Source of the DNA: Candidatus Nealsonbacteria bacterium
GTDB lineage: Bacteria; Patescibacteriota; Minisyncoccia; Minisyncoccales; GWA2-38-27
Length of the DNA stretch: 58,096 bases
Assembly (NCBI GenBank): GCA_030617105.1
Contig: JAUWWC010000002.1
Coordinates: forward strand, 1 to 58,096
Direction of reading: 5' to 3'
Below are positions 114-52,054 of the stretch, in pieces. The notes beneath the pieces were generated by a model. The model was given only the letters and a program-made list of their open reading frames with translations, did no database searches and was not told the origin of the DNA. Positions within the stretch are counted from its first letter, which is position 1, and every line of letters begins with the position of its first letter. A program made the translations under genes and the position numbers.

Positions 114-938
114 TTATTCCTCTGCCAGCAATCCTCTCTCCCTCGCTCCTTTCACGTATAGTTTCCTAATCTGGGCTGAACTTAGGGCACTATCATAAAC
201 TCTAGCTTCATCTATCAATCCATTAAATCTTCTACTAGAACTCTCTCTTCCTATCCTTACCCAATTAGTAGATTCCCCTGTGCCAGTATTAGGTATATTG
301 TTATCCTTTGCGCCATTAATGTAAAAGGTTACCCCATTAGTTTGGTCCCAAGTAACAACAACATGACTCCATTTACCTGTTGGAACTGAATTAGAAGTAG
401 AATAATGGTATCCTTCGCTATTCCACCCATACCAATAAGTTGCTAATCTATTATCGTTATTATGCTGAAAATAGAAACGATCCATTCTAATTATAGGCGC
501 TCTTGAATCAGCAGCTTCATCAGGTTTTATCCAAGCCATAGCGGTTATTTCGGTACTAGGATTAACAGAAATAGTACCAATATATACATCTTCTCCACTT
601 CCGCCATTCCCACTTTCATTAAAACTTAAAGCATAACCCTTTCCGCTTGGGGTGTCGGTGGTAAAGGTGGCGCCGTTGATGGTGCCATCATTTCCATTGC
701 CGCTGGCGTCTCCTGCTGTTCCTCCACTTCCTTCATTGAAATCCCACACTCCTACTGCATAAGCGCCGAGAGCATGATGAATACTGGAACTAAACTGAAG
801 CCCCTTAGCTATTCTGGCTTTTTCCCTGGCACTACCTAAAGCAACTATAATAATACTTGCTATAATCCCAATAATAGCCATTACTACTAATATCTCTATC
901 AGGGTGAAAGATTTTTGCTTTTTCATATTGCTATTCAA
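114..938 (-). CDS. Prepilin-type N-terminal cleavage/methylation domain protein with a LamG (concanavalin A-like lectin) domain
   Basis: N-terminus [23 protein letters not shown] is a class III signal. The C-terminal part has LamG-like motifs ([17 protein letters not shown]; [21 protein letters not shown]). Confidence 0.8.
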
Positions 939-2676
939 TAATCACGCGCAATACTTCCTCCAAGCTCGTTATTCCTCTGGCTGCTTTGATAAACCCATCT
1001 TCAATCATTGTTCTCATGCCTTCTCTTTTAGCTTGTTCTTGAATTTGGTCAGTAGTGGTTCGTTTAACAATTAATTCTTTGATTGTTTCAGTCACATCTA
1101 AAGCCTCAAAGATTCCAATTCTCCCTTGATAGCCTTCAGGACATTCTTTTGAAGGTTTTGGCCTGTAAAATGGAACATTTTTTAAAGTATCTTTAGCTTT
1201 TACTGCCTTCTCTTCTTTTAAAACTTTAAGCATTTCTTCTAAGTCGCAGTAATTGGCTAAGTTTTTCAATTCCGAAGCCTTTAGAAAGTATTTTTCATTC
1301 TCTGGGCAAAGCCGACGTACTAATCTTTGAGCTATAATCACACCTAAGGTTGAAGAGATTAAAAATGGCTCTGCTTTCATATCAACTAATCTAGGAATAG
1401 CTCCAGCAGCATTGGTTGTATGTAAAGTAGATAAAACCAGATGCCCGGTTAAGGCAGCGTTAATAGCTAAACCAGCTGTTTCCTTATCTCTAATTTCACC
1501 AACCATAATAATATCTGGGTCCTGCCTAACTAAAGAACGAAGGCCTGAGGCAAAAGTTAAGCCAATTTTAGCATTAACTTGGGTCTGATTAATCCTTGGC
1601 ATCCTATATTCAATCGGGTCCTCAACAGTGGAAATATTCACTCCTGGAGTATTTAAAATTTCCATCATAGCGTATAAGGTGGTTGTCTTTCCTGAACCAG
1701 TAGGACCAGTAATAAGAATCATGCCTACTGGTTTTTTCAAATTATGGTGAACTCTTTCTAATGCCTCTCCTCTCAAACCTAATGCCTCCAAAGTAAATGC
1801 CTTTGATGTTTCTGGTAAAAGCCGCATTACAATCTTTTCTCCATCAAAAGTTGGTAAAACCGAAACCCGAATAGAATATTTATACTCTCCTGTCTCAATT
1901 TTAAACCTACCATCCTGAGGGAGCCGATGCTCATCTAATTTCAAACGGGAAAGAACCTTAATTCTGGCTACAATTCCTGAACTAACCATCTTTGGCAAAA
2001 CCATAGCATCATGGAGAATGCCATCAATTCTATAGCGGACTACAACTTCTTTTTCTGTTGGTTCAATATGAATATCAGATGCTCTTTGTAAAACTGCATG
2101 CTTAAGCAAAGTGTCTACAATTCTAATTACTGGCAGTTCTTCAGCTACCTTTCTTAAATCTTCTTTCTCTTCTGCTTCCTCTTCTTTAATTGGCCTTATC
2201 CCTCCAGCTTCCTTCTTTATAATCTCTCCGAATTCAGCTTCTAAGGTCTTTTGATATTGCCTTAAAACGTTTTTGATGCTTTTTACTGTTGTCAACCGAG
2301 GTAGAATTTTTAAACCCGCCTTCTTTTTAATAAATTCAATAGTTCTTAAATCTTCAGGATCAAGCATAGCTACCTCTAAATTCCTTCCTTGTTTTTTAAA
2401 AGCAACAATATTATGACTTCTGGCAATTGGCTCTGGGATTATTTTTAAAACATCGGAGGGAATTGTCTCTTTCTCCAGATTAACAAAAGCAACGCCTAAG
2501 ATATATGCCTGTAATTTAGTTAAATCCTCCTGATTAATTAAACCTTCAGCAACTAAAATATCTTCAAGCTTTTTTTTGCTCTTCTTTGCTTTTTTTAAGG
2601 CCTTATCAAGCTGGGCTTTAGTAACCAAACCAGCATCAAGTATAAAAGCTTTTAATTGTTGTTCTTCAACTCTCAT
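931..2676 (-). CDS. pilB: Type IV pilus assembly ATPase (GspE/PilB family)
   Basis: Walker [11 protein letters not shown], an EDPIE Asp box, Walker B-like IIMVGEIRD, a His box [12 protein letters not shown], and N-terminal GSPII_E-like repeats. Overlaps the downstream pilin gene by 8 nt. Confidence 0.9.
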
Positions 2677-2692
2677 AATTTAAAGTTTAGAT

Positions 2693-3061
2693 TTATTCAC
2701 CGAGGACTTTCTTAAGCTTTTCTATTACTTCCTCTATTGCATACTTGGTCTTGACTAAATAGGTTTTTGCTCCTAATTCAATAGCTTTTTCCACATCTTC
2801 CATTTTTTCAAGATTGGTCAAAATAATCACTGGAATTTCTTCTGTTTCTGGATTGCCTTTCAATTCCTTTAAAACTTCAAATCCATGCATCCTTGGCAAA
2901 ACAAGGTCAAGCAAGATTAAATCCGGCTTCTCACTTTTGGCTAATCTTAATCCTATTTCTCCATCCAAAGCGCTAATCACTTTGTAGCCTCGTTGGGTCA
3001 GAATATCTTCAAATGTTTTTTGAAGAGTTGACTCGTCTTCAATAAAGAGTATTTTCTTCAT
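2693..3061 (-). CDS. Stand-alone response regulator receiver (CheY-like)
   Basis: Has IEDE, then DLILLDLVLP (phospho-acceptor Asp), then ILTN..K. At 122 aa there is no output domain. Confidence 0.85.
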   Translation of the reverse strand: MKKILFIEDESTLQKTFEDILTQRGYKVISALDGEIGLRLAKSEKPDLILLDLVLPRMHGFEVLKELKGNPETEEIPVIILTNLEKMEDVEKAIELGAKTYLVKTKYAIEEVIEKLKKVLGE

Positions 3062-3079
3062 ATATTTGATTTTAGTTAA

Positions 3080-4024
3080 TTATTTAATTGGTAATCTAAT
3101 AAAAAATGTTGTTCCTTTTCCTAATTTAGACTTAAACCAAATTTGTCCTCCTGACCTATCAATAATTGATTTACAAACATACAATCCCAAGCCGCTTCCT
3201 CTGGTGCGTTCTTTTAAGATATTTTCAGCCCTAAAAAACTTCTGGAAAATATACTTTTGCTCTTCTTGAGGAATACCAACACCTGAATCTTTTATAGCAA
3301 AAAGCACTTTATCTTTTTCTTTACTAAGCATAATTTCTACTTTGCCTCCGCCTTTTGTGTAACGGATAGCATTATCTATAAGGTTTTCAATTACAATCTT
3401 TAAAAAAGATGAGTCAGCTATAATATTAGGCAGATTTTCCTCAGAATAGAATTTTAACTCAATGCGTGATGACTCGGCAAAAACTTTGTATCTTTCAACT
3501 AAATCATTTACCAAATGCTGTAAAGAAATCTCTCTTTTTGCTATGGAAAAAGCCCCCTGTTCAACCTTAGAAACGATTAACAAATCATCAATTAATTCTA
3601 CCATCCGAGCAATGTTTTCTTTTACATTAACAAAATATTCTTCCTGTTTTTCTGAGGGAATTTTAAAATCTTCCGAAGATAAAACCTCAAAAGTCCATTT
3701 TATATTGGTTAAAGGAGAACGTAATTGATGGGATACAATATTAATAAACTCTGATTTCATTTGAGAAGCCTCAGCTAATCTTTCAAAACTTCTGGTTATG
3801 ATAAAGGCAATAATGAATAAAACTGTAGTAACAGCAAGAACAATAGAAACTACTATTTCTGGCTTAACTATGTAACGGCTCCCAATTAGATAAGAAATAA
3901 TTGAAGCCAGAATAATAACAACCCCCATTACCAGAAAAAGAAACTGTGGACACTGCCAAACAGAAACTCCATAACGTCTGCACTGAGCAATAATATTCAA
4001 TTGAGCAGTAATCTTCTTGAACAT
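3080..4024 (-). CDS. Sensor histidine kinase (HisKA + HATPase_c) with two N-terminal TM helices
   Basis: H-box FINIVSHQLRSPL, N-box NLIDNAIRYT, G-boxes DSGVGI and GSGLGL. Lies directly upstream of the receiver gene. Confidence 0.9.
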   Translation of the reverse strand: MFKKITAQLNIIAQCRRYGVSVWQCPQFLFLVMGVVIILASIISYLIGSRYIVKPEIVVSIVLAVTTVLFIIAFIITRSFERLAEASQMKSEFINIVSHQLRSPLTNIKWTFEVLSSEDFKIPSEKQEEYFVNVKENIARMVELIDDLLIVSKVEQGAFSIAKREISLQHLVNDLVERYKVFAESSRIELKFYSEENLPNIIADSSFLKIVIENLIDNAIRYTKGGGKVEIMLSKEKDKVLFAIKDSGVGIPQEEQKYIFQKFFRAENILKERTRGSGLGLYVCKSIIDRSGGQIWFKSKLGKGTTFFIRLPIK

Positions 4025-10668: not shown

Positions 10669-12117
10669 TTATTTTACAAACATGAAGCGAAAAACATGAA
10701 GTCGTGGTCCACTATCGCTGGTAAGAATAAGATTTTGTGGACAAGCAGGAATTAAACGCAGCTTGATTTGTGGTATTCCATTATATCGTCCTATTCTTGT
10801 GTTAAGTATACGCCACGAATGTAGAGAACGACGGAAAATAGGAACTATCTCAAAATCAATATCTGCATTTATTATATCAGAATTAACACCATACCCACAA
10901 AGCAACTTTTCCAATCGATGCCATATCTTAAATACTGCATCATCGTTTTTAGGCATAGAACGAATAATATCTAAAAACTGATGATGATATTTAGATGGCA
11001 CCGTTACCTCTTGAAGTCCGGTAATATTCTGACATATCCTTTGAAAAAAGGGGTTTGGGTAAAATGTAAGCTCTTTGCTACAATGCTTATCAAAAACAAT
11101 TTTTGATTGTCCATCTTGATAATCAACATTCAAAAGAATCACTTTTTGACCAATAGGAATTCTATCGACCTGAGAAATAGAATATATATTTAATTCTACT
11201 CCGTGCCGACTTAATCCCTTTTTTAGGCTTTCCATCTCCATAAGCTCAAGAATATCTTCTTGGTTTTCTAATACTTGGTTGCGAGTAACTATCGCTATTT
11301 GTTTGCTATTAATATTGTCAACTAATACTCTACAAACAACCTTTTGAAGCGAACCAACTATTTTCTGAACTAATGGAAGAATTTTAGAAAAAGGGCTGTG
11401 AATTTCGTTCAAAAACATTCCTACGTCTGGACAATTAATTTGCTCAACTGTCACTGTTCCATCTGAAAGAATGAAAACGTCTGCCTGACAGTAAAGTAAA
11501 TTGTCTACTTGACAACATCCAGAATATTTTTTTTCCTCTTCGCTTGCTCTTTTAATAACGTCCTGAAGCAAAACATTTACTAAATTGCTTACACGTTTGA
11601 TTAAATCTTGACCAAAAACAATTTCCTTGTTCGGAAGTGCCGGTCTAATCAAAAAGAAAGGTGCTCGTCCTTTGTCTGCTCTTCTTGTGGATCCGATTCG
11701 CTGAAGCATCTCATCAACCTTTCTAAGATTAAATGCATTGAACTCTCTTTGAACCGATTCAACTATTTTTTGATCAGACAAATAGTAAGCTTCTGGAATA
11801 GCCAATCCTTCTTCTTTACAAATCTTTCTCACTGATAAGTCAGTGTTAGAATGATTCGGGTTTATATAAAATGGAAGAAAATTACCAGCCATTCCTTGAT
11901 CCGTTTTAAGAACAGGGCGATAGAAACCAACGCCTCTCATCATTTGTTTCAAATACGTGATATCGCTTGGAAAAAATGCCTCCAATAATTCTATCATGGG
12001 TTTTTTGCGAAGTTTCTTAAGCTCCGTATTTAATTCAACAACATCGTTTGTAACGTAAAGATGGTTTAAACCAACGCTCGCTGACTTAATCCTACCGCCA
12101 ATAGGCACTAATCTCAT
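10669..12117 (-). CDS. Hypothetical protein, possible ATP-grasp-superfamily amide ligase (glutathionylspermidine-synthase-like / circularly permuted type, tentative)
   Basis: ADVFILSDGTVTVEQINCPDVGMF resembles the Mg/ATP-binding strand-loop (..D...dG....E.N..P.) of ATP-grasp ligases. There is a strong SD (GAAGGGAG) 7 nt before the ATG. A T-box leader lies directly upstream. Confidence 0.35.
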   Translation of the reverse strand: MRLVPIGGRIKSASVGLNHLYVTNDVVELNTELKKLRKKPMIELLEAFFPSDITYLKQMMRGVGFYRPVLKTDQGMAGNFLPFYINPNHSNTDLSVRKICKEEGLAIPEAYYLSDQKIVESVQREFNAFNLRKVDEMLQRIGSTRRADKGRAPFFLIRPALPNKEIVFGQDLIKRVSNLVNVLLQDVIKRASEEEKKYSGCCQVDNLLYCQADVFILSDGTVTVEQINCPDVGMFLNEIHSPFSKILPLVQKIVGSLQKVVCRVLVDNINSKQIAIVTRNQVLENQEDILELMEMESLKKGLSRHGVELNIYSISQVDRIPIGQKVILLNVDYQDGQSKIVFDKHCSKELTFYPNPFFQRICQNITGLQEVTVPSKYHHQFLDIIRSMPKNDDAVFKIWHRLEKLLCGYGVNSDIINADIDFEIVPIFRRSLHSWRILNTRIGRYNGIPQIKLRLIPACPQNLILTSDSGPRLHVFRFMFVK

Positions 12118-26876: not shown

Positions 26877-28556
26877 TTACTCTTGTTTATATGAATATTC
26901 AGCTGATATCCATCCTGTTGTCCCATCTTCCAGTTCTATCTTGTACCATGTTTCAGACTCTTCCAATAAAGGGTAACTTTCTTCAGCATAAACAACGCCT
27001 ATTACAGGGTAGCTTGTTCCAGGTCCTTGTCTTACTCTTAATGGGACTTCAAGGAATTCGCCAATAAAGACCAGGGTTATCTCAGCTTCTTCCTCTGGAG
27101 CTTCTTCCTCAGGAGGCGCTTCTTCCTCAGGAGGAATCTCTTCTTCTTGCGTTTCAACTGGTGATGCAGGTGCTTGTTTTCTTATTCTGAAAAACCAATA
27201 CCAAAAAGTACCAACGCCGGCTAAGATAATTAAAATAATGCTTACAATTAAAATTCTGAGCCAAAGTTTTTCCCTAATAGTTGGTTTTTTAGGAACAACC
27301 CTAATAAATTCTGGAGATGGCTTTGCTGCTGGAGCAGATTTTATAGGTTCTTTCTTTACTTTCAAAGGCAAACGCAGCCGTTCTAATAATTCTTTCCTCC
27401 TTTGTTCTTTCACAACCATTTTCTCAGCCTTTCTTTTCTTTTCCTGTTCTTGTTTTATTCTCTCTTCCTGCTCTTTTCTTTCCTGCTCTTTTCTTTCCTG
27501 CTCTTTTCTTTCCTGCTCTTTTCTTTTTGCTGCTTCATCTTCTTCTGTGCCTGTTTCCCTCTTTACTGCTTTCCTCAATGCCTCAATTCTTTTTTTGGCT
27601 TCAGCAACTCTGCTTTCTCTTTCAGTCGAAGCAGAAATAGAAATTGGCTTGTCCTCAACTGGCTTGTCCTCAACTGGCTTGTCCTCAACTGGCTTGTCCT
27701 CAACTGGCTTGTCCTCAACTGGCTTTTCCTCAACTGGCTTTTCCTCAACTGGCTTTTCCTCAACTGGCTTTTCCTCAACTGGCTTTTCCTCAACTTTTTC
27801 TTCGGCCTTCTCTGGCTCTTCAGGCCTCCCTTCTATTTTTCTATCTATGTCTGCTATTTTAGCGGAGATATCGTTTCTTTTCTCTGTTAATGTTTGAAGC
27901 CTATTCTTTAATTTCTTGGTTTGGGATTCTAATTTCTGTTTTGTTTCCTCTATTTCCCATCTCTTTGTCTCAATTTCTCTTCTTCTCTCCTCTATGCCCC
28001 ACCTTTCCTTTTCTAATTCTTTTTTCCCGCCTAAGTCTTCAGTTGTTTTTTCTTCTTGCTCAACCATCCTCTTCTTTTCCTCAATCTTTCCTTCTTCTGC
28101 TAAAACACTTTTTAAGCTTGCCTGAACTTTATTTATCTTCCCAAACAGCTCAGCTTTCTCTGCTTCAAACGACTCTCCTAATGCTTCAAGGTTTTTGAGT
28201 TCTCCTTGCAATGCAGTCTTTTCTGATTCTAACTGAATCTTTCCTTCTCTTTCAGTAATCTCTGCTTGTCTTGCGAATAATTCTTCTTCTTTAAGTTCTA
28301 TTTGCTTGGCCTGAGATTCAATTGTTTGCATTCTGGCATCTAATTTCTTTATCTTTTCATCCCAGGGCCATCTCTTCTTTTCTAATTCTCTACGTTTTTC
28401 TTCTATTACCCACCTTTGTTTTTCTATCCGTCTTTTCTGCCTTGCTGTTTCTGCTGCTCTTTCTTTTTCTTCAATTAATCTCTGGACTTCTTCAATTTTC
28501 TTTTCCTTAGCTGCAATGAACTGAAAACCTTTCTTCACTCTTTCCAACTCTCCCAT
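26877..28556 (-). CDS. Repeat-rich coiled-coil membrane protein with a C-terminal SH3b-like domain
   Basis: Long E/K/R coiled coil, (VEEKP)x5 + (VEDKP)x5, (KEQER)x4, TM helix LWLRILIVSIILIILAGVGTFWYWFF, and C-terminal VRQGPGTSYPVIGVV..WYKIEL.DGTTGWISAEY. Confidence 0.7.
   Translation of the reverse strand: MGELERVKKGFQFIAAKEKKIEEVQRLIEEKERAAETARQKRRIEKQRWVIEEKRRELEKKRWPWDEKIKKLDARMQTIESQAKQIELKEEELFARQAEITEREGKIQLESEKTALQGELKNLEALGESFEAEKAELFGKINKVQASLKSVLAEEGKIEEKKRMVEQEEKTTEDLGGKKELEKERWGIEERRREIETKRWEIEETKQKLESQTKKLKNRLQTLTEKRNDISAKIADIDRKIEGRPEEPEKAEEKVEEKPVEEKPVEEKPVEEKPVEEKPVEDKPVEDKPVEDKPVEDKPVEDKPISISASTERESRVAEAKKRIEALRKAVKRETGTEEDEAAKRKEQERKEQERKEQERKEQEERIKQEQEKKRKAEKMVVKEQRRKELLERLRLPLKVKKEPIKSAPAAKPSPEFIRVVPKKPTIREKLWLRILIVSIILIILAGVGTFWYWFFRIRKQAPASPVETQEEEIPPEEEAPPEEEAPEEEAEITLVFIGEFLEVPLRVRQGPGTSYPVIGVVYAEESYPLLEESETWYKIELEDGTTGWISAEYSYKQE
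27466..27525. repeat. Tandem 15-nt coding repeat, 4 copies (TCCTGCTCTTTTCTT)
   Basis: Perfect head-to-tail copies encoding the KEQER repeats. Confidence 0.9.
27646..27795. repeat. Tandem 15-nt coding repeat, 10 copies in two perfect blocks of five (GGCTTGTCCTCAACT x5, GGCTTTTCCTCAACT x5)
   Basis: Read directly. The two blocks differ by one base per unit (VEDKP versus VEEKP). Confidence 0.95.
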
Positions 28557-32671: not shown

Positions 32672-33610
32672 TTAACGGGCGAAGGGGTTGCGGCTGCCGC
32701 GCACGCCGAAATGCACGTGACACCCAGTTGACCTGCCAGCTCCTGAAGTTCCTGGCTTACCTCCCATTAAAGCAATCATCTGACCTTGAGAAACTGCTTG
32801 GCCTGGAGCAACCAAGCTCTTTTGAATATGACCATACATTGTTACTACTCCATTAGGATGTAAAATTGTTAAATAATTTCCAGCTCCTCCATTCCAACCA
32901 TATTTTACCCTTTGCACTATGCCTGCTGCTGCAGCATATATTGGGTCTCCACATTTACCTCCAAAGTCAATAGCATTATACCAATGAAGCCCTTGAGTAA
33001 TTCTACAAACAGCATGAGGACAGATAAAATAACTTGAACCAATAGGAACCTGGGAAGCGGCATAATAGGTCTTTGGAGCAGGCATCTTGCCATTAGGAAT
33101 AATCAAAATATCACCTATGAAAATATCTCCTTCGCTTGAAAGTCCGTTAAAAGTAATGATTTCAGGACTTTTACCTTTATATGTCTCTGCAATCTCACTT
33201 AATGTATCTCCTTTTTTAATATGGTAAACAACTCCTGAAACTGGCAGAATAACAAGTTTCTGGCCAGGCCTAATTATTGATTTTGAGCTTAAGTCATTGG
33301 CCCATAAAATTGTTTCAAGAGAAACATCATATTTAGCTGTAATAGAAGAAAAGGTATCTCCTGATTCTACAATATATTCAATAATTCCATTTCTTGCTTC
33401 TGCCTCATCTTCAATGGTTCCCAACATGCTCCCTAAAACCTGTGGAGTAATTGTTACTGGCGGAGAAAGCCCAACCATACTGTTCTTTTGGATAAAAGTC
33501 ATTTCAGGAGATTCTCTAAGAAAGTTTTTACTTGGGTTAGCAAATAAATCTTGAGAAATTAAACTAGCTGATATCTGACTGGGTAGTTTTAAACTTGAGA
33601 ATAAGCCCAA
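32672..33610 (-). CDS. LysM (x2) + M23 peptidoglycan DD-metalloendopeptidase (start codon uncertain)
   Basis: LysM repeats YIVESGDTFSSIT..W.N and YHIKKGDTLSEIA, and M23 motifs H.YNAIDF and GCHVHFGV. The frame stays open upstream to 33760 and encodes a TM helix, but it has no ATG/GTG/TTG there. Confidence 0.8.
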   Translation of the reverse strand: MGLFSSLKLPSQISASLISQDLFANPSKNFLRESPEMTFIQKNSMVGLSPPVTITPQVLGSMLGTIEDEAEARNGIIEYIVESGDTFSSITAKYDVSLETILWANDLSSKSIIRPGQKLVILPVSGVVYHIKKGDTLSEIAETYKGKSPEIITFNGLSSEGDIFIGDILIIPNGKMPAPKTYYAASQVPIGSSYFICPHAVCRITQGLHWYNAIDFGGKCGDPIYAAAAGIVQRVKYGWNGGAGNYLTILHPNGVVTMYGHIQKSLVAPGQAVSQGQMIALMGGKPGTSGAGRSTGCHVHFGVRGSRNPFAR

Positions 33611-43696: not shown

Positions 43697-44929
43697 TTAA
43701 TAAGGCTTTGCACCAATGATTATAAGTCTTGTGGCTGCGGCTACAGCGCATTTTGTATAGATCCAATAACCGCTGCCATATGAAGGAGTAATGTATTTTT
43801 TGCAATCTTCCTCATTTGTTATATTTTTATTATCAAGTAAATTATTATCAACTCCGCTGAAAAAAGTATCACTTCTTCCATCACTAGTAAGAAGAATAGC
43901 TAAAAGATCGCCTTCAATTTTAATTGATTCTGGCGACCAAAGCAGTGGCTTATCTTCGCACCACCACTTATTATCTCCGCATGGCGGTTTGTTGAGCCAA
44001 TAAGGCTCAGAATCTAAAGCCACCCCCTTATTTAAATTAGGTTTTTGATATAAAGTTACTTTCCAATTAGGGTCTAACTCATAAAGTAGTTGAAAGGGCT
44101 TGATTGAGGAAAGACCAAAGCCTATTCCCACCAATACCTCTCTTTCATATGGTCTCCATCCGCCACCAGGATCTTTAAGATGAGAAACTACAGGATAGGA
44201 CTTACCTTCAAAATTTCTATCTTCATAAACAATTACCCCATATTCGGTTTCATATTCCCAATCTCCATCAGTCCATATATGTGGAATGAAATAGATAAAC
44301 TTAACCTTGTTGTCAAAATCTCCTCTAATATCTTCTGCGCTTGAAACTGTATAACATTGATCTGTAATTTCTTCAAATATTGTATCCAACTCTTTTTTTA
44401 TTCTTCTTTGTTCGTCTATTCTTTTTTGCTCATCTTTTATTGAATCTGTTTTTTTGAAGTCTTCAGTAAGGTCCCAAGCTTTCATTACAAGCATTTCTTC
44501 TTTACAAAGAAGAACTCCAGCAGGTAATTCAGAAATAATTGGCTTTAATCGTGGGAGGTGGAAGACGATTAGGTCTGGGTTGATGGTTATTAGAATTAGA
44601 TAAGAGCCAAAAAGGATTAAAAGGCCTAAGAGAGCAGCGCCAATCCTGCTTTTAGCATCATTTATTCTTTCAGGGCTTCCAGCTGATGTAAAATATTGAA
44701 ACCCAGCATAAATTAAAACAACAAGGGCAATCAGTCCGCTTATCCAGATTAAGAAATTAAAAATATATTTAAAATATTCAGTAACTGGAGTAGTGGCTTG
44801 TTCTGGTTTAAATCCTTCAATTTCCGGGTATTCAACTTCTAAGTCTCTACCTGTTCGTTGCGCAAAAGCAAAACCAACTAAGCCAAAAAGCATAATAAAG
44901 ATAATAACAATGCTAAAGAATTTTTTCAT
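43697..44929 (-). CDS. T4SS-pilin-like hairpin fused to a C-terminal beta-rich domain (possible beta/gamma-crystallin-like repeats)
   Basis: Signal peptide, then hairpin IALVVLIYAGFQYFTSAGSPERINDAKSRIGAALLGLLILFGSYLILITINPDL. C-terminal segments such as YGVIVYEDRNFEGKSYPV resemble Greek-key motifs (tentative). Confidence 0.6.
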   Translation of the reverse strand: MKKFFSIVIIFIMLFGLVGFAFAQRTGRDLEVEYPEIEGFKPEQATTPVTEYFKYIFNFLIWISGLIALVVLIYAGFQYFTSAGSPERINDAKSRIGAALLGLLILFGSYLILITINPDLIVFHLPRLKPIISELPAGVLLCKEEMLVMKAWDLTEDFKKTDSIKDEQKRIDEQRRIKKELDTIFEEITDQCYTVSSAEDIRGDFDNKVKFIYFIPHIWTDGDWEYETEYGVIVYEDRNFEGKSYPVVSHLKDPGGGWRPYEREVLVGIGFGLSSIKPFQLLYELDPNWKVTLYQKPNLNKGVALDSEPYWLNKPPCGDNKWWCEDKPLLWSPESIKIEGDLLAILLTSDGRSDTFFSGVDNNLLDNKNITNEEDCKKYITPSYGSGYWIYTKCAVAAATRLIIIGAKPY

Positions 44930-46005
44930 ATAGTAATTGTTTTATGTTCAATTATTTCTTCTATAATATTAAGTATTTCATCAGACTTATTAATGATTTG
45001 GGGATTTAGACCCTGGATTAGTAGAAGCTTGCCTTGAATTTCCCCAACAGGGCAAGGGTTGCCCCCATCGCAATTTACTGGCTCACATCCTTCTTTTATA
45101 TCATGGCACCCTCCTTTACAATGAGCATTACATCTATTGTTTACTCCAAAAACATCATCATATAAGCATTTATCTGGAAGCGTGCCTATTTCTGACATAA
45201 AGGGCTCTATCTCCTTGATTTTATCAACTAATTCTTTAAGCTTTGCTGCCAAATCTTTCTTTAGGTTCTTTTCTATGGTTATTTTTTCTTTTTGTTCTTT
45301 TAGATATTCTATAATTTTTTCATCGTCTTCTATTATTATGTTTTTTTGATAATAAACTATTTTTTCATCTAAAACCTTTTTTATCTCATCCTGTAAATCT
45401 TGTTCTTCAGCAATAGCTCTATTTCTATAATAAAGGATTTCGTCTTTCCAGGCAATAACTCTTTTCTGGTTTTCCTTAATTTCTGATTGATTTGGGCAGG
45501 GCTGGAATCCAGGCCCAGCATAACATTGACGGGGCTGGCAGGAATTACTTTCCTCGCCTCCATCGCAAAAGCATAAGGGCTGGGTATTGCTGCAGTCGCA
45601 GTTGTCAGTTAGGTCTTTTATTTTCTGGCTTGAAAGTTCAATTCCAGGAATTATATATTTTTTAAGTTGTTCAGCGATTTCTTCAACTTTGCCTAAGAGT
45701 TTTGGAGTTTTAGTTTCAAGAGGAGGTATGTCTAAAGGAGAAAAAATGATTTTTTCCAGCCCAGGCATTTCAAAACTAACTAATTCAGGATTAATAGTTC
45801 TTAGAATTAAATAAGAAGAAAGAAGAATAACAATTCCCAAAAAAGCAGCTAATATTTGCTTTCTGGCTTTGCTTAATTTTTCCGGATCTCCAGCTGAAGT
45901 TAAATAAAGAACCCCTCCTATAATTAAACCCACTAAAGCAATTACTCCAGCAATAGAGATGATGTATGTATAAAGATTTTGAAAAGCGTCAGTAAGAGAA
46001 GGCAT
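44926..46005 (-). CDS. T4SS-pilin-like hairpin fused to two Cys-rich modules flanking a coiled coil
   Basis: Hairpin IALVGLIIGGVLYLTSAGDPEKLSKARKQILAAFLGIVILLSSYLILRTINPEL. Cys-rich modules CDCSNTQPLCFCDGGEESNSCQPRQCYAGPGFQPCP and CLYDD..NNRCNAHCKGGCHDIKEGCEPVNCDGGNPCP. Confidence 0.65.
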   Translation of the reverse strand: MPSLTDAFQNLYTYIISIAGVIALVGLIIGGVLYLTSAGDPEKLSKARKQILAAFLGIVILLSSYLILRTINPELVSFEMPGLEKIIFSPLDIPPLETKTPKLLGKVEEIAEQLKKYIIPGIELSSQKIKDLTDNCDCSNTQPLCFCDGGEESNSCQPRQCYAGPGFQPCPNQSEIKENQKRVIAWKDEILYYRNRAIAEEQDLQDEIKKVLDEKIVYYQKNIIIEDDEKIIEYLKEQKEKITIEKNLKKDLAAKLKELVDKIKEIEPFMSEIGTLPDKCLYDDVFGVNNRCNAHCKGGCHDIKEGCEPVNCDGGNPCPVGEIQGKLLLIQGLNPQIINKSDEILNIIEEIIEHKTITI

Positions 46006-46010
46006 ATTTA

Positions 46011-47903
46011 TTATTTAATTTCGCAGACATAGAAATTAAGTTCATGAATACATTGGGCAATTTCTGGGTCGTTTAACATTATACTTAGTCCGTCCAAGCA
46101 TTCTTGGACGCATTCTCTGTGTTTTTCCTGGCCTTTTTCTAAATAGCATTCTCCAAAGCAGTCGCCATAAATCGTGTCTTCTGTTTTACAGCAGATTCGC
46201 AAGATTGCATTGTTTGGAGGGATAATTGCTCCTTTTGCTTGTAAACAGTTAAATATTTCATCATAATGTCTCATTGTGTATCTAACACTCTTTGCCAAAT
46301 CTTTAATTATCTCAGGACCTATTTCATCAATTATAGGTATTATGCCAATGTTTGTTGGAGTATCATTGCTGCCTTTTCCTTCTATTACATCTCTTATTTC
46401 TTGCCAAATTCTTTGGATTTCTTTAAGTTGGTCTTTGATTTTCCCTTTTGGACAGACCCCGTCTAATTCAGGTTTAACAAAACATCCTATTTCTACACAC
46501 CAGCAACCAGCCTTAGAGCAAAAGCATTCGCACACTGGATAACATCTCCTGGAACTGCACTGGCTGACTAAAACCTGTAATTTATCAACAGCATCAATTA
46601 ATTCTTTATCTTTTTCAACAAGCAGTTCTAATTTATCTATTAAGAGCTGGGTTGTTCTTTTTGTTCTGTCAATGATTTCTCCTACTGGAGCTTCGTTTGA
46701 ACAAGCCATTGATTCAGAAAATACTTCTTCTGCTTCTTCTACTGACTCTTCTCCAGTAAGTTTGTCTTCATCAGGCGCAGCTGAAAAAACTTCTTCCTGT
46801 TCCATTGTTCCGCTTACAGAGCAGTAAAAAGTTGCAAAATCAGGCAAAAATTCTTTAGTTGGTTGAAAATACCAGTTGCCATATTGATTTTTTGTATATT
46901 CGCCTGTGTAATAATAAAGATTTACATCGTCCCAGAATTTAGTTTCTCTTATCGTCCAGTCCTGATTATCATAAGAATCTTTTTTGTTATAAAACTGAAC
47001 TAAACTTTTTAAAGACCTTAAAGGACATTCTTTTATAAATTTTTCTGCTCTTTTAAGCCGGTCTAATTCTTCTTTTAAAAGACGAACCTCTTGTTCTATC
47101 TCTGTGTTTTTTATATTAAGATTGTTAATTTCTGTCTGATTTTCCGCTTCTCTGTCTTGGATTCCTTTTCTAACCGGGGCACAAGGATCAGAAGTGCAAT
47201 ATCTAGGCGGGCAGTCATTACATCCGCCATGCCAACAGCAAGGGTCAGGATGAGTACCTCCGTTTTTAGAACAGGTGGATCTGGGATAAAAACATCTACA
47301 ATTATCTGAATAGTTCTTTAGAGCTTCGCTTTGTTGTTTAAGTTTATCAGCAATTCCTGTTTCATCTTCAGCAGCTATTGCCGTAACATAATTCCTAATT
47401 CTTTCCATTCTTGGCGTTTTTTTCTCTTCGGGTTTTGGATAATCAGAAATATATGCTTCAAAAATCTTTTCAATTATTCTTGCAAAAGGCATTTCAACAT
47501 CAATTGAGCTGTTAATAGCAGTAATTTCAGGCAGGGGCACTTCTGGTTTTACAGTGATTTGAACTTGTTGAAGGGTCGGGATTTTTAGATTAATAAACTG
47601 GGGACTAAGGGTTTTTAAAATGAGATAAGAAGATAATAAAATCAAGAGGCCGAAAAAAGCGCCAGAGATTTGGTTTTTAGCCAAAGTCATTCGGTCTGGT
47701 TTGCCAGTTGAGATTAGATAGAGAATTCCGCCGTAAATTAATCCTGCTAAAGCAAGAATTCCTCCTGCCCAGATGGATAAATTAATAAGATATTTAGCAT
47801 AAAGGGAAAGAATATCTTCTACAGGAGCAGTTGTGACAAAATCCTGAGGCGGAATAGCTCCAGGAACTCTGGGATAAATTATTTCTAAAATAAAAAAAAG
47901 CAT
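46011..47903 (-). CDS. T4SS-pilin-like hairpin fused to a large multi-module Cys-rich extracellular region
   Basis: Hairpin LALAGLIYGGILYLISTGKPDRMTLAKNQISGAFFGLLILLSSYLILKTLSPQF. Cys-rich modules CRCFYPRSTCSKNGGTHPDPCCWHGGCNDCPPRYCTSDPCAP, CSSRRCYPVCECFCSKAGCWCVEIGCF, and CCKTEDTIYGDCFGECY..HRECVQEC. Confidence 0.65.
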   Translation of the reverse strand: MLFFILEIIYPRVPGAIPPQDFVTTAPVEDILSLYAKYLINLSIWAGGILALAGLIYGGILYLISTGKPDRMTLAKNQISGAFFGLLILLSSYLILKTLSPQFINLKIPTLQQVQITVKPEVPLPEITAINSSIDVEMPFARIIEKIFEAYISDYPKPEEKKTPRMERIRNYVTAIAAEDETGIADKLKQQSEALKNYSDNCRCFYPRSTCSKNGGTHPDPCCWHGGCNDCPPRYCTSDPCAPVRKGIQDREAENQTEINNLNIKNTEIEQEVRLLKEELDRLKRAEKFIKECPLRSLKSLVQFYNKKDSYDNQDWTIRETKFWDDVNLYYYTGEYTKNQYGNWYFQPTKEFLPDFATFYCSVSGTMEQEEVFSAAPDEDKLTGEESVEEAEEVFSESMACSNEAPVGEIIDRTKRTTQLLIDKLELLVEKDKELIDAVDKLQVLVSQCSSRRCYPVCECFCSKAGCWCVEIGCFVKPELDGVCPKGKIKDQLKEIQRIWQEIRDVIEGKGSNDTPTNIGIIPIIDEIGPEIIKDLAKSVRYTMRHYDEIFNCLQAKGAIIPPNNAILRICCKTEDTIYGDCFGECYLEKGQEKHRECVQECLDGLSIMLNDPEIAQCIHELNFYVCEIK

Positions 47904-48253: not shown

Positions 48254-49195
48254 TTAAGGTTGCTCTGGGAAAGAGAAAAAGTTAAAATCTTTTACTCCAA
48301 AAATATCCTCAAACAGTTTAAACTGCTGAGGAGGTTTGATTTCCAGAGGCATGTTAAATTCAGACAGATAAATTTCAACTTTTATAGCCGTTGTCTCGTC
48401 AGATTCTTGAACATAAACTTCGCTTTCCATGTTCACTTTATAAATCAACTTATCTTCTTTGCCTATCCAAACTTCAGCCCTTATCTCTTCAAATCCTTCA
48501 AGGCATTCAGCGTCAATAGGTAAAAGTTTGGATATTTCTGGGACTAACTTCTTTAATTCTTCTTTTTCTATATCAAAAAGATAGTGATAAGTTTCTTTTT
48601 CATTGATTTTTTCATCTGGCAGTATTTTTTTAAAACGGAAAAAGCTTTCATTTGCGAGCATTTTTTTTATCACTTCTAATTCTGATTCAGCAGAAAGCCT
48701 GCCAAATAGATCTTTAAAACTCTCTTTTTCAAGCTTAATCCAGTGGTTTTTTATTTCCTCCAGATCAAAAGCAAAAAAGTCCAAAAATTGAGAAGACGGC
48801 AAGGAGGTTAGTTTAAACCAAGAGTTTTCGCCAATGATTATTTTTTCCCATTCAAATAAAAACTCACCTCTATCAAAATCAGCGCTATTCTTTGTTTTTC
48901 CTCTCCATTTCAGCACCTCCTTATTAGTAATATCTAAATCCCCGTTTACACTCATAGAGCTCTTAGTAATGTTTTGTCCTGTTCGTATTATTTCTTTTCC
49001 AAAAAAAATATCAAAATGAAGAGTTTTGAGTTCGGCAAAAAGGAGCGAGGACTCTTTTAAAACTTCTTTAGGAGAAGGACGAAAAGGGCTCCAAAAAGGA
49101 TCCCAAATTAGAATGCTGACAACAGCTGCTGTCCCAATCGCTATTACAATGGCTATTCCAGTAGCAATTTTTATAACAAGTCCTGGCTTTTTCAT
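48254..49195 (-). CDS. N-terminally membrane-anchored protein of the T4SS-like operon, unknown function
   Basis: A single TM helix (IATGIAIVIAIGTAAVVSILIW), then a ~280-aa soluble domain. Confidence 0.5.
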   Translation of the reverse strand: MKKPGLVIKIATGIAIVIAIGTAAVVSILIWDPFWSPFRPSPKEVLKESSLLFAELKTLHFDIFFGKEIIRTGQNITKSSMSVNGDLDITNKEVLKWRGKTKNSADFDRGEFLFEWEKIIIGENSWFKLTSLPSSQFLDFFAFDLEEIKNHWIKLEKESFKDLFGRLSAESELEVIKKMLANESFFRFKKILPDEKINEKETYHYLFDIEKEELKKLVPEISKLLPIDAECLEGFEEIRAEVWIGKEDKLIYKVNMESEVYVQESDETTAIKVEIYLSEFNMPLEIKPPQQFKLFEDIFGVKDFNFFSFPEQP

Positions 49196-51021: not shown

Positions 51022-51651
51022 TTACTCTACCAATTCACTTGGTATTTCTGGGTAATAGCCTTGTTCTGCTTGTTCTGGGTGATGCAATCCCCAGAAAAGT
51101 TCAGTAATCTCTAAATTGGTCAAAGGGACAGATTGAAGCCCGGATCCTCTTAACCCTAAAACCACAAACTCTACTCTCTGCATAAGTTGGATTTTGCATC
51201 TTTGGAACATTTCTTCAGTTAAGCTCGGGATTTTAGGAAACTTCCTTTTTTCTCTGGTTACTGAAGCTTCCATAATGGAAAAAGGAACTATTACATAAAA
51301 AGTTTTTTGCATAATTGACCCCCCTTTTGTTATTTGCTCAATAAATTTCCTGTAATCAGTAATCTGGATTTTAAGCAGTTCATTTTCTTCTTTTTTCTCA
51401 ATCTCTGTTAGTTTTTCTAAATAGCCAGTAATATTAAGACGTCTTGATTGAACAAGGATTTGGCAGGAGAAATCCAGGGAATTTAAGAAATTCTGGAATT
51501 GGTATAAAATGGCATTTTGCTCTTCAGTGGATTTTAAAGCAAAATTTAAAGAAGAGACCATTAGCACTGCTCTTAGGCCTTTGTTTTTTAAAATAATAAT
51601 CCCATCTCTTATTTGGTCAAATTCTAAAAAATCTTGAGTAGAAAGCTTCAT
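51022..51651 (-). CDS. VirB4-like N-terminal domain encoded as a separate ORF
   Basis: STQDFLEFDQIRDGIIILKNKGLRAVLMVSSLNFALKSTEEQNAILYQFQNFLNSLDFSCQILVQS matches the N-terminal pattern I recall from Gram-positive VirB4 homologs (e.g. Tn916 Orf16, PrgJ). Its stop lies 1 nt before the ATG of the ATPase ORF. Confidence 0.55.
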   Translation of the reverse strand: MKLSTQDFLEFDQIRDGIIILKNKGLRAVLMVSSLNFALKSTEEQNAILYQFQNFLNSLDFSCQILVQSRRLNITGYLEKLTEIEKKEENELLKIQITDYRKFIEQITKGGSIMQKTFYVIVPFSIMEASVTREKRKFPKIPSLTEEMFQRCKIQLMQRVEFVVLGLRGSGLQSVPLTNLEITELFWGLHHPEQAEQGYYPEIPSELVE

Positions 51652-51652
51652 A

Positions 51653-52054
51653 TCACTTTGTTTCTAATTTTGTGAATAATTCATCTAATTTACTGCCTTT
51701 GGTGACTTTTAGTTCTGATTCTTTCTCAATTTCTTCTTTTTCTTCTTTTACTTTTCTGAGAAATTTTGGAGGACTGGTTTTCTTTTTCCAGAGATAAATC
51801 TTTGGTTTAAAAAGAAAACTAAAGAAGTTTTTTATAAAAATGGGTAGAGAGGTTTTTCCAATCTTTAGAAAAGCCAAACCAAAAGCTCCTCCTAATAAAA
51901 CTATTGCTGCGATTATGAAGAGATAAAGGGGGACAGTGAAAAAAAGAAAAAGGCAAATCCCACCGGCAATGCCTATAAAGATAAACTGTTTAAAGGTAAA
52001 GGGACCAACTATTTTTGCCTCTTTCTCAATAAATTGTGGAACAGTAAATTTCAT
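51653..52054 (-). CDS. PrgI/VirB3-like small membrane protein
   Basis: MKFTVPQFIEKEAKIVGPFTFKQFIFIGIAGG, then two TM helices and a basic tail. This is the typical PrgI-family layout, and it precedes the VirB4 genes. Confidence 0.6.
   Translation of the reverse strand: MKFTVPQFIEKEAKIVGPFTFKQFIFIGIAGGICLFLFFTVPLYLFIIAAIVLLGGAFGLAFLKIGKTSLPIFIKNFFSFLFKPKIYLWKKKTSPPKFLRKVKEEKEEIEKESELKVTKGSKLDELFTKLETK

Follow-up and report, generated by a model that had tools for sequence, protein, structure and literature searches.

What do three unusually large hairpin proteins, encoded back to back beside genes for a type IV secretion system (T4SS) of a patescibacterium, contribute to that machine? The question is raised by a 58,096-nt stretch of Candidatus (Ca.) Nealsonbacteria DNA (contig JAUWWC010000002.1 of assembly GCA_030617105.1, positions 1-58,096; this whole stretch is called the window below). 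Few patescibacterial systems have been shown to be indispensable for epibiotic life, and the T4SS is among them. Southlakia epibionticum needs its T4SS, together with the pilin array, to grow as an epibiont (Wang et al., 2023, PMC10633639), and arrays of pilins close to virB4 and dnaA occur widely across Patescibacteria (Quiñonero-Coronel et al., 2025, PMC12102498). The published arrays are presented as sets of 2-11 small, highly variable pilins, possibly serving host-range or antigenic variation (PMC10633639, PMC12102498), and reviews call the role of the patescibacterial T4SS completely unknown (PMC11665869, PMC12857230). In the window, subunits A (630 aa), B (359 aa) and C (410 aa) are encoded by adjoining open reading frames (ORFs) on the minus strand. 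A first-pass annotation had read them, together with a 164-aa protein encoded elsewhere in the window, as pilins, three of them giant; all four ORFs are present, on the minus strand.

We judge the chances to be about even that A, B and C serve the T4SS as structural subunits exposed at the surface, distinct from one another but working together, and that they belong to a tip or a wall-spanning stalk and not to the bulk of a fibre. Arrays of VirB2-like pilins next to virB4 and dnaA are known, as is the fact that S. epibionticum cannot do without them, whereas the conserved, non-redundant and ordered set of giant fusions appears to be new; no mention of large cysteine (Cys)-rich or crystallin-like fusions, or of a conserved ordered trio, was found in the patescibacterial T4SS pilin literature (PMC10633639, PMC12102498, PMC12857230). 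As in the S. epibionticum array (SEML1_0006-0019), PF18895/TrbC-type hairpins stand in tandem beside virB4, PrgI and TrsD, at a chromosomal site adjoining dnaA; unlike in the published arrays, the proteins, 359-630 aa long, form three orthologue groups that keep a fixed order and carry large conserved ectodomains. The surveyed 'pilin arrays' are thus heterogeneous, some members being large multi-domain proteins, and the antigenic-variation reading would not apply to these giant members because they are not small variable pilins. The ordered trio, predicted to be surface-exposed, provides concrete, testable candidates for the host-touching part of the essential patescibacterial T4SS.

The genomic context ties the trio to the T4SS. 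A, B and C form the 3' end of a compact operon (52054 to 43697) whose genes abut or overlap; the order is PrgI/VirB3-like protein, TrsD/TraC-like protein, VirB4 ATPase, an ORF of 313 aa, a membrane protein of 114 aa, A, B and C. The operon converges on jag-yidC-yidD-rnpA and dnaA. The region beyond dnaA and dnaN encodes a TrbL/VirB6-like protein and KsgA, along with a LysM-M23 peptidase and the 164-aa pilin; because this second T4SS half lies on the far side of dnaA and dnaN, the T4SS locus straddles oriC, as described for Patescibacteria (PMC12102498). VirB4, TrsD and PrgI/VirB3, with VirB6, near dnaA and in the absence of a relaxase are the marks of the patescibacterial T4SSs derived from the mating-pair formation (MPF) type FATA (PMC12102498), and the window genes scanned show this arrangement. 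The order VirB4, small transmembrane protein, A, B, C, jag, yidC, dnaA recurs in four related loci (L001, L003, L005 and L014), at identities down to 25%. In a fifth locus, L026, the A-B-C order sits between KsgA and VirB6 and not after VirB4; since the three genes were relocated as a unit beside VirB6, the trio seems to be coupled to the T4SS rather than to a particular neighbour. The trio is encoded with T4SS genes in all five of these loci, and the three proteins are kept, apparently as one gene each and in fixed order, through deep divergence. As the ordered trio always travels with T4SS genes, it is probably the outward part of the T4SS. About 80 full-length homologues of each subunit, metagenomic or from Patescibacteria, were collected, down to 25-35% identity (25% for A); the nearest named relatives are Ca. 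Nealsonbacteria, and a genome-collection scan with a narrow alignment returned only close relatives.

The feature common to the three subunits is the hairpin. When a hidden Markov model (HMM) derived from the A, B and C families was run against all window ORFs of at least 50 aa, it matched exactly four, as the first-pass annotation had proposed: the three large proteins (E = 1.7e-37, 2.6e-34 and 2.8e-33) and the 164-aa protein (E = 1.2e-11), the next best value being 0.2. The hairpins are 30-54% identical in pairs. Against PF18895 (T4SS_pilin; gathering cut-off, 26.6 bits) the scores are 42.7 bits for B, 28.6 for C, 26.4 for A and 19.9 for the 164-aa protein; B and C thus pass the threshold, and A is 0.2 bits short, yet many A orthologues carry a precomputed PF18895 match. 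Scores against PF04956 (TrbC/VirB2; cut-off, 27.9 bits) are all sub-threshold (C, 24.5 bits, E = 3.3e-5; 164-aa protein, 18.3; B, 15.6; A, no match), with a precomputed PF04956 match in some C orthologues. These profile scores place the hairpin in PF18895; membership in the classical TrbC/VirB2 family is not demonstrated by them. The hairpins share with VirB2/TrbC/TraA (PF04956) a signal peptide, two hydrophobic helices, a short basic loop and a location beside VirB3 and VirB4 genes, but differ in that canonical VirB2/TrbC pilins are about 100 aa long, as the first-pass annotation had stated (98-121 aa in eight plasmid pilins), and carry no extra domain, whereas the proteins here have 359-630 aa and score below the Pfam cut-off. 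B and C also match the NCBIfam 'Mbov_0395 pilin-like conjugal transfer protein' (NF045849; E ~3e-6), a protein of a mycoplasma integrative and conjugative element (ICE) with a monoderm MPF-FATA-type system, whose VirB4 matches the PrgI- and TrsD-like proteins of the window. This match is sub-threshold (~27 bits vs a cut-off of 40), and Mbov_0395 family proteins, unlike A, B and C, have only ~80 aa.

Hairpin topology is predicted to be N-terminus out, loop in and C-terminus out, based on hydropathy, two AlphaFold models and the positive-inside rule: the loops hold 3-4 lysine and arginine residues and the flanks are net acidic, and the AlphaFold2 (AF2) helices span residues 28-64 and 69-99 in A, and 50-81 and 86-116 in C. 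Such a topology would place the large C-terminal regions outside the cell, in line with the surface display suggested at first pass. The hairpin is the best-conserved region of the three families (mean pairwise identity 56, 52 and 67%, vs 33-57% elsewhere), and its loop residues are near-invariant. Also, hairpins cluster by orthologue family: identity is 63% there, 47% between the hairpins of one genome and 45% when both family and genome differ. On this basis it was rejected that the three hairpins had been duplicated recently or had evolved in concert, and the grouping indicates that A, B and C are ancient and non-redundant. A post-cleavage motif, (A)LE[IV]xYPxxxG, is common to all three families. 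In the window genome and those most closely related to it, the signal peptide of A and B has been lost, A starting with 'MLFFILEIIYP', inside this motif.

The ectodomains of A and B are extremely Cys-dense, as noted at first pass, and the Cys strings quoted there are present. Cys makes up 30 of the 630 residues of A (4.8%) and 14 of the 359 of B (3.9%), vs a background of 0.88% over 52 further window genes (binomial P = 2e-13 for A and 5e-6 for B); given these P values and the HMM matches, the combination of hairpin and Cys richness is not due to chance. Conservation in homologues is high, with 14/14 Cys of B at >=93% and about 18/30 of A at >=85%, and in Cys knot 2 of B the residues H301 and D302 are nearly invariant. 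Long helices in the model separate the Cys clusters, agreeing with the coiled coils of the first-pass annotation; the hairpin-less regions of A and B share more than Cys richness, being homologous (hhalign probability 98.7%, E = 2e-16). The shared plan comprises a helix, Cys knot 1 and a long helix, followed by a helix, Cys knot 2 and a helix opening with 'CP..(E)I', so that on sequence comparison B is a minimal version of the ectodomain of A. Beyond this plan, A has the β-domain inserted at about residues 300-405, which B lacks, and a Cys domain at its C-terminus. A second, weaker alignment suggests that the two Cys modules arose by internal duplication. In the AF2 model of A (predicted local distance difference test, pLDDT, 79; predicted template modelling score, pTM, 0.69), helices of 44-48 residues, ~7 nm long, lie between the Cys clusters, and Cys knot 2 is a β-hairpin.

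These Cys modules match no family that can be named, as had been stated at first pass: nothing but coiled-coil and helical-bundle noise came from Pfam, NCBIfam, PHROGs, PDB sequences (queried with single sequences and with profiles) and Foldseek searches of PDB and BFVD. Explanation by a known domain was therefore rejected, the matches in domain, sequence and structure databases being generic helical ones. All-disulfide chemistry judged from even Cys counts was likewise rejected as a clean test, because even and odd Cys counts occur at random among A homologues, and most B homologues have an odd number (15); among the about 50 window genes scanned, no Dsb/VKOR-type disulfide-forming gene was found. 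A profile of the B ectodomain retrieved 179 cluster representatives in 1.84 billion, nearly all matches beginning right after a hairpin. Among relatives of the A/B ectodomain, P0310, P0267 and P0318 have a Peptidase_M23 or Zn-metallopeptidase domain appended, and P0370, P0377 and P0387 carry an insert of 600-900 aa between the two Cys modules; relatives thus append peptidases or inserts to the ectodomain, which is consistent with its being a structural scaffold. By sequence, the Cys-knot module is reused in other giant surface proteins. P0373 (3000 aa) and P0318/P0323 (~1500 aa) hold up to 15 'NPCP..EI' repeats of the Cys-knot-2 type, or the scaffold at the extreme C-terminus; the M23 match of P0318 is weak, below the cut-off.

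The ectodomain of C is of another kind, and hhalign found no homology to those of A and B. The AF2 model (pLDDT 81.5) shows a short helical hairpin followed by an all-β domain, matching the β-rich C-terminal region with Greek-key-like segments described at first pass. In a Foldseek search of PDB, γS- and βB2-crystallins take the first five places, with E values between 1.7e-3 and 8.5e-3, probabilities of 0.93-1.0 and a TM-score of at most 0.55; a βγ-crystallin fold, and with it the 'crystallin-like' label given at first pass, is modestly supported by this model. The Greek-key signature [YFW]-x4-[YF]-x-G with a downstream Ser is found as Y235-x4-F240-x-G242, S274 being nearly invariant and S275 invariant; a second unit reads 'LYQxxNxNxG ... 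SPxSI'. C thus resembles microbial βγ-crystallins (Protein S, Flavollin 3hzb, M-crystallin; PF00030) in its structural matches and its conserved Y-x4-F-x-G and Ser. It differs from them in its large insertions, in the modest TM-score and in the Ca-binding motif N/D-N/D-x-x-S/T-S, of which the Ser-Ser part is conserved but is preceded in the window protein by G-F-G-L. Pfam Crystall (PF00030) was unmatched at E <= 0.1, and weak PDB sequence matches to bacterial βγ-crystallin 3hzb (E = 0.57) and βB2-crystallin (E ~2) are non-significant. Two unannotated extracellular modules can thereby be defined, a Cys-knotted helical scaffold and a divergent βγ-crystallin-like head.

If A, B and C are structural subunits of the T4SS, each would be inserted in the membrane through its VirB2-type hairpin, with the N-terminus out, the positive loop in and the C-terminus out, and the hairpin would dock the subunit at a VirB3/TrsD/VirB4/VirB6 platform. 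The ectodomain of A and of B would project outward as a stalk of ~7-nm helices, the helix-connecting loops bearing the Cys-rich knots, and C would project a short helical hairpin carrying the βγ-crystallin-like head. Together, the three subunits might form an extracellular tip or a wall-spanning stalk, the part that meets the host cell, in a role like that of VirB5 or of surface adhesins in other T4SSs, and the 164-aa pilin would be the better candidate for the major pilin of the shaft. The likeness to VirB5/TraC tip proteins, and to minor pilins of type IV pili and type II secretion systems that carry large domains, concerns the proposed role only, namely a presumed low-copy protein that uses the assembly route of the major pilin and places an elongated helical or globular module at the distal end. 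It is an analogy and not membership: unlike the subunits here, VirB5 has no VirB2 hairpin, and no sequence or fold similarity was detected.

Several results weigh against a place of the trio in the T4SS tip or stalk. No structural or sequence similarity to VirB5/TraC or to any adhesin was found in Pfam, PDB sequences or Foldseek. With hhalign, the hairpin gave a probability of 0.3-3% against eight annotated plasmid MPF-T VirB2/TrbC proteins, a weak negative given a small and narrow VirB2 alignment, and a hairpin profile matched no pilin in PDB. Direct homology to classical VirB2 is thus unsupported, and since this profile-profile test was not significant, the term 'VirB2 homologue' depends on genomic context and on profiles from Pfam and NCBIfam; the first-pass view of a pilin hairpin as opposed to a generic anchor holds as to PF18895, the VirB3/VirB4 operon and the conservation of the hairpin, but not as to MPF-T VirB2/TrbC. 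The window copies of A and B are without an N-terminal signal peptide, so that export of their N-terminal tails is an assumption; a signal peptide is present in C, in the 164-aa protein, in most A homologues and in some B homologues. B of L026 (922 aa) has a plain signal peptide, a 600-900-residue insert between its Cys modules and no hairpin, indicating that the hairpin is dispensable for B, as one lineage manages with a plain signal peptide or anchor. Finally, Cys knot 1 of A has low pLDDT in the AF2 model.

Loss of the hairpin from one B also bears on whether the pilus shaft itself is a polymer of A, B and/or C, joined through their VirB2-like hairpins, each subunit displaying a large Cys-knotted or crystallin-like module, as the first-pass annotation had favoured. 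The hairpins are of a pilin family and strongly conserved. The hairpin-only matches retrieved all come from proteins of at least 222 aa, so that large hairpin fusions seem common. In known pili, as seen in F-type pilus structures, the C-termini of VirB2-type pilins point outward, which also speaks for a decorated shaft. Yet the trio has the one-gene-each, fixed-order and deeply diverged pattern typical of stoichiometric accessory subunits, a separate small pilin is present, and fitting an ectodomain of 280-530 residues to each subunit of a helical pilus would make high steric demands. We consider polymerisation into the shaft improbable: ancient, non-interchangeable orthologues, of which one can lose the hairpin, fit dedicated accessory subunits better than bulk pilin. 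A plain anchoring function, in which the hairpin is a stable two-pass anchor of many patescibacterial surface proteins, and A, B and C are envelope proteins (e.g., wall-organising or S-layer-associated) that merely share the T4SS operon, seems somewhat less improbable but still unlikely. Other proteins carry this hairpin fused to wall enzymes (M23, NlpC/P60, YkuD and SLT), an ordinary signal peptide can serve B, and the hhalign comparison with genuine VirB2 was not significant. However, wall hydrolases are themselves normal T4SS accessories (VirB1/PrgK; PMC12102498), the trio accompanies T4SS genes in both of the gene arrangements seen, and a hairpin more conserved than its ectodomains, with near-invariant loop residues, would be unusual for a passive anchor.

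The dense, conserved Cys clusters with a conserved His-Asp pair, the often odd Cys counts, which are compatible with metal ligation, and the peptidase domains of some relatives would be expected if the ectodomains were secreted effectors, toxins or metal/redox proteins, released or acting chemically on the host via metal-binding Cys clusters. We regard this as very improbable. Pfam, NCBIfam and other family searches gave no toxin, enzyme, haem or Fe-S family match, and nothing points to the toxin-like modules imagined at first pass; moreover, long structural helices make up most of the fold, most lineages have the proteins anchored in the membrane, and a fixed three-gene synteny is unlike effector repertoires. 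Taken one step further, the accessory-subunit reading would make the three ancient hairpin proteins a 'minor pilin' system of the T4SS in many Patescibacteria: assembled into a heteromeric tip or stalk, they would prime or cap the VirB2-like pilus of a single-membrane bacterium and contact the host cell specifically, the Cys-knotted stalk and crystallin-like head being new extracellular modules, possibly metal-stabilised for anoxic habitats. This more specific proposal is tentative and less likely than not. If true, it would describe the first defined host-contact device of the essential patescibacterial T4SS.

The positions of the subunits, their modules and the neighbouring T4SS genes are collected in Table 1.

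Table 1. Positions in the window of subunits A, B and C, their modules and other T4SS genes
Feature	Size or residues	Positions	Strand	Remarks
Subunit A	630 aa	46011..47903	-	N-terminal tail with LEIIYP motif, hairpin, helical stalk with two Cys knots, inserted β-domain, C-terminal Cys-rich domain
A, hairpin	residues 28-100	47604..47822	-	loop net positive
A, Cys knot 1	residues 202-241	47181..47300	-	9 Cys; C202, C204 and C241 invariant
A, inserted β-rich domain and acidic disordered loop	residues 300-405	46689..47006	-	gap in hhalign alignment with B; DSSP strands 317-365
A, Cys knot 2	residues 449-485	46449..46559	-	β-hairpin with CxCxC...CxC, then 'CP..(E)I' helix
A, C-terminal Cys-rich α/β domain	residues 547-630	46014..46265	-	9 Cys
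Subunit B	359 aa	44926..46005	-	hairpin at extreme N-terminus, helical stalk capped by two 7-Cys knots
B, hairpin	residues 5-78	45772..45993	-	PF18895, 42.7 bits
B, Cys knot 1	residues 136-170	45496..45600	-	CxC-x6-CxC-x8-C-x4-C-x8-C; all Cys >=96% conserved
B, Cys knot 2	residues 280-318	45052..45168	-	...C-x3-C-x3-CHD-x4-C-x4-C-x5-CP; all Cys >=93% conserved
Subunit C	410 aa	43697..44929	-	signal peptide, LEVEYPEI motif, hairpin, short helical hairpin, predicted βγ-crystallin-like β-domain
C, hairpin	residues 49-122	44564..44785	-	PF18895, 28.6 bits
C, all-β ectodomain	residues 192-410	43700..44356	-	conserved Y235-x4-F240-x-G242, S274-S275 and S335
PrgI/VirB3-like membrane protein	133 aa	51653..52054	-	PF12666, E = 6e-7
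TrsD/TraC-like protein	209 aa	51022..51651	-	related to N-terminal part of VirB4; NCBIfam VirB4_plasma, CD1110, TrsD
VirB4-type ATPase	605 aa	49203..51020	-	PF19044, E = 3e-22; AAA_10; DUF87
Polytopic small membrane protein	114 aa	47905..48249	-	directly upstream of A in L001, L003, L005 and L014
TrbL/VirB6-like polytopic protein	742 aa	34740..36968	+	PF04610, E = 1.6e-4, below cut-off
LysM and M23 peptidase		32672..33610	-	candidate VirB1-like wall hydrolase; adjoins small pilin
Small pilin	164 aa	32069..32563	-	signal peptide, Cys motif LVPCG...C..C, hairpin

PF26593 was found in orthologues of the TrsD/TraC-like protein. The 114-aa membrane protein is 39% identical to its L014 copy, and too divergent from that of L001 for similarity to be detected. 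The VirB6-like protein has an orthologue at the equivalent place in L003 (34% identity, E = 8e-72), and the LysM-M23 peptidase is the same neighbour also in L026. Neither a relaxase nor a VirD4/coupling protein was found among the window genes scanned (58 kb examined), and scans for promoters and terminators gave no more than background. An origin from a phage or mobile element was rejected, as there are zero PHROG matches and the context consists of chromosomal housekeeping genes around oriC.

Between VirB4 and the 114-aa protein, positions 48254-49195 (minus strand) encode the 313-aa ORF, which has one N-terminal transmembrane segment and no family match; as it is missing there in L001, L003, L005, L014 and L026, it looks like a lineage-specific insertion in the T4SS operon. 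The PrgI-like and TrsD-like proteins (51022-52054, minus strand) align consecutively (~14-122 and 103-233) to the N-terminus of a fused mycoplasma ICE VirB4 (NF045975), which suggests that VirB3, TrsD and VirB4 are here a split version of one long ATPase. At positions 5835-9632 of L014, from the closest relative (Ca. Nealsonbacteria, GCA_030616085.1), VirB4 has 1265 aa and contains an intein with a LAGLIDADG endonuclease; the 605-aa VirB4 of the window has no intein.

Other features lie elsewhere in the window. Type IV pilus-type genes at 114-4024 (minus strand), at the window edge, encode a pseudopilin that carries an N-terminal methylation motif and is joined to a LamG/ConA-like domain, as well as a PilB-type T2SSE ATPase; next come a response regulator and a histidine kinase. 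At 23513-24659 (minus strand), overlapping ORFs of 233 and 152 aa match successive parts of Peptidase_M20 and may represent a split or frameshifted gene. The 482-aa ORF at 10669-12117 (minus strand) belongs to no family, and the 559-aa ORF at 26877-28556 (minus strand) has a C-terminal SH3_3 domain as its sole annotation. A 513-aa ORF at 21315-22856 (minus strand) combines NUDIX and polyprenyl synthetase domains, and a separate NUDIX gene lies at 20440-20862.

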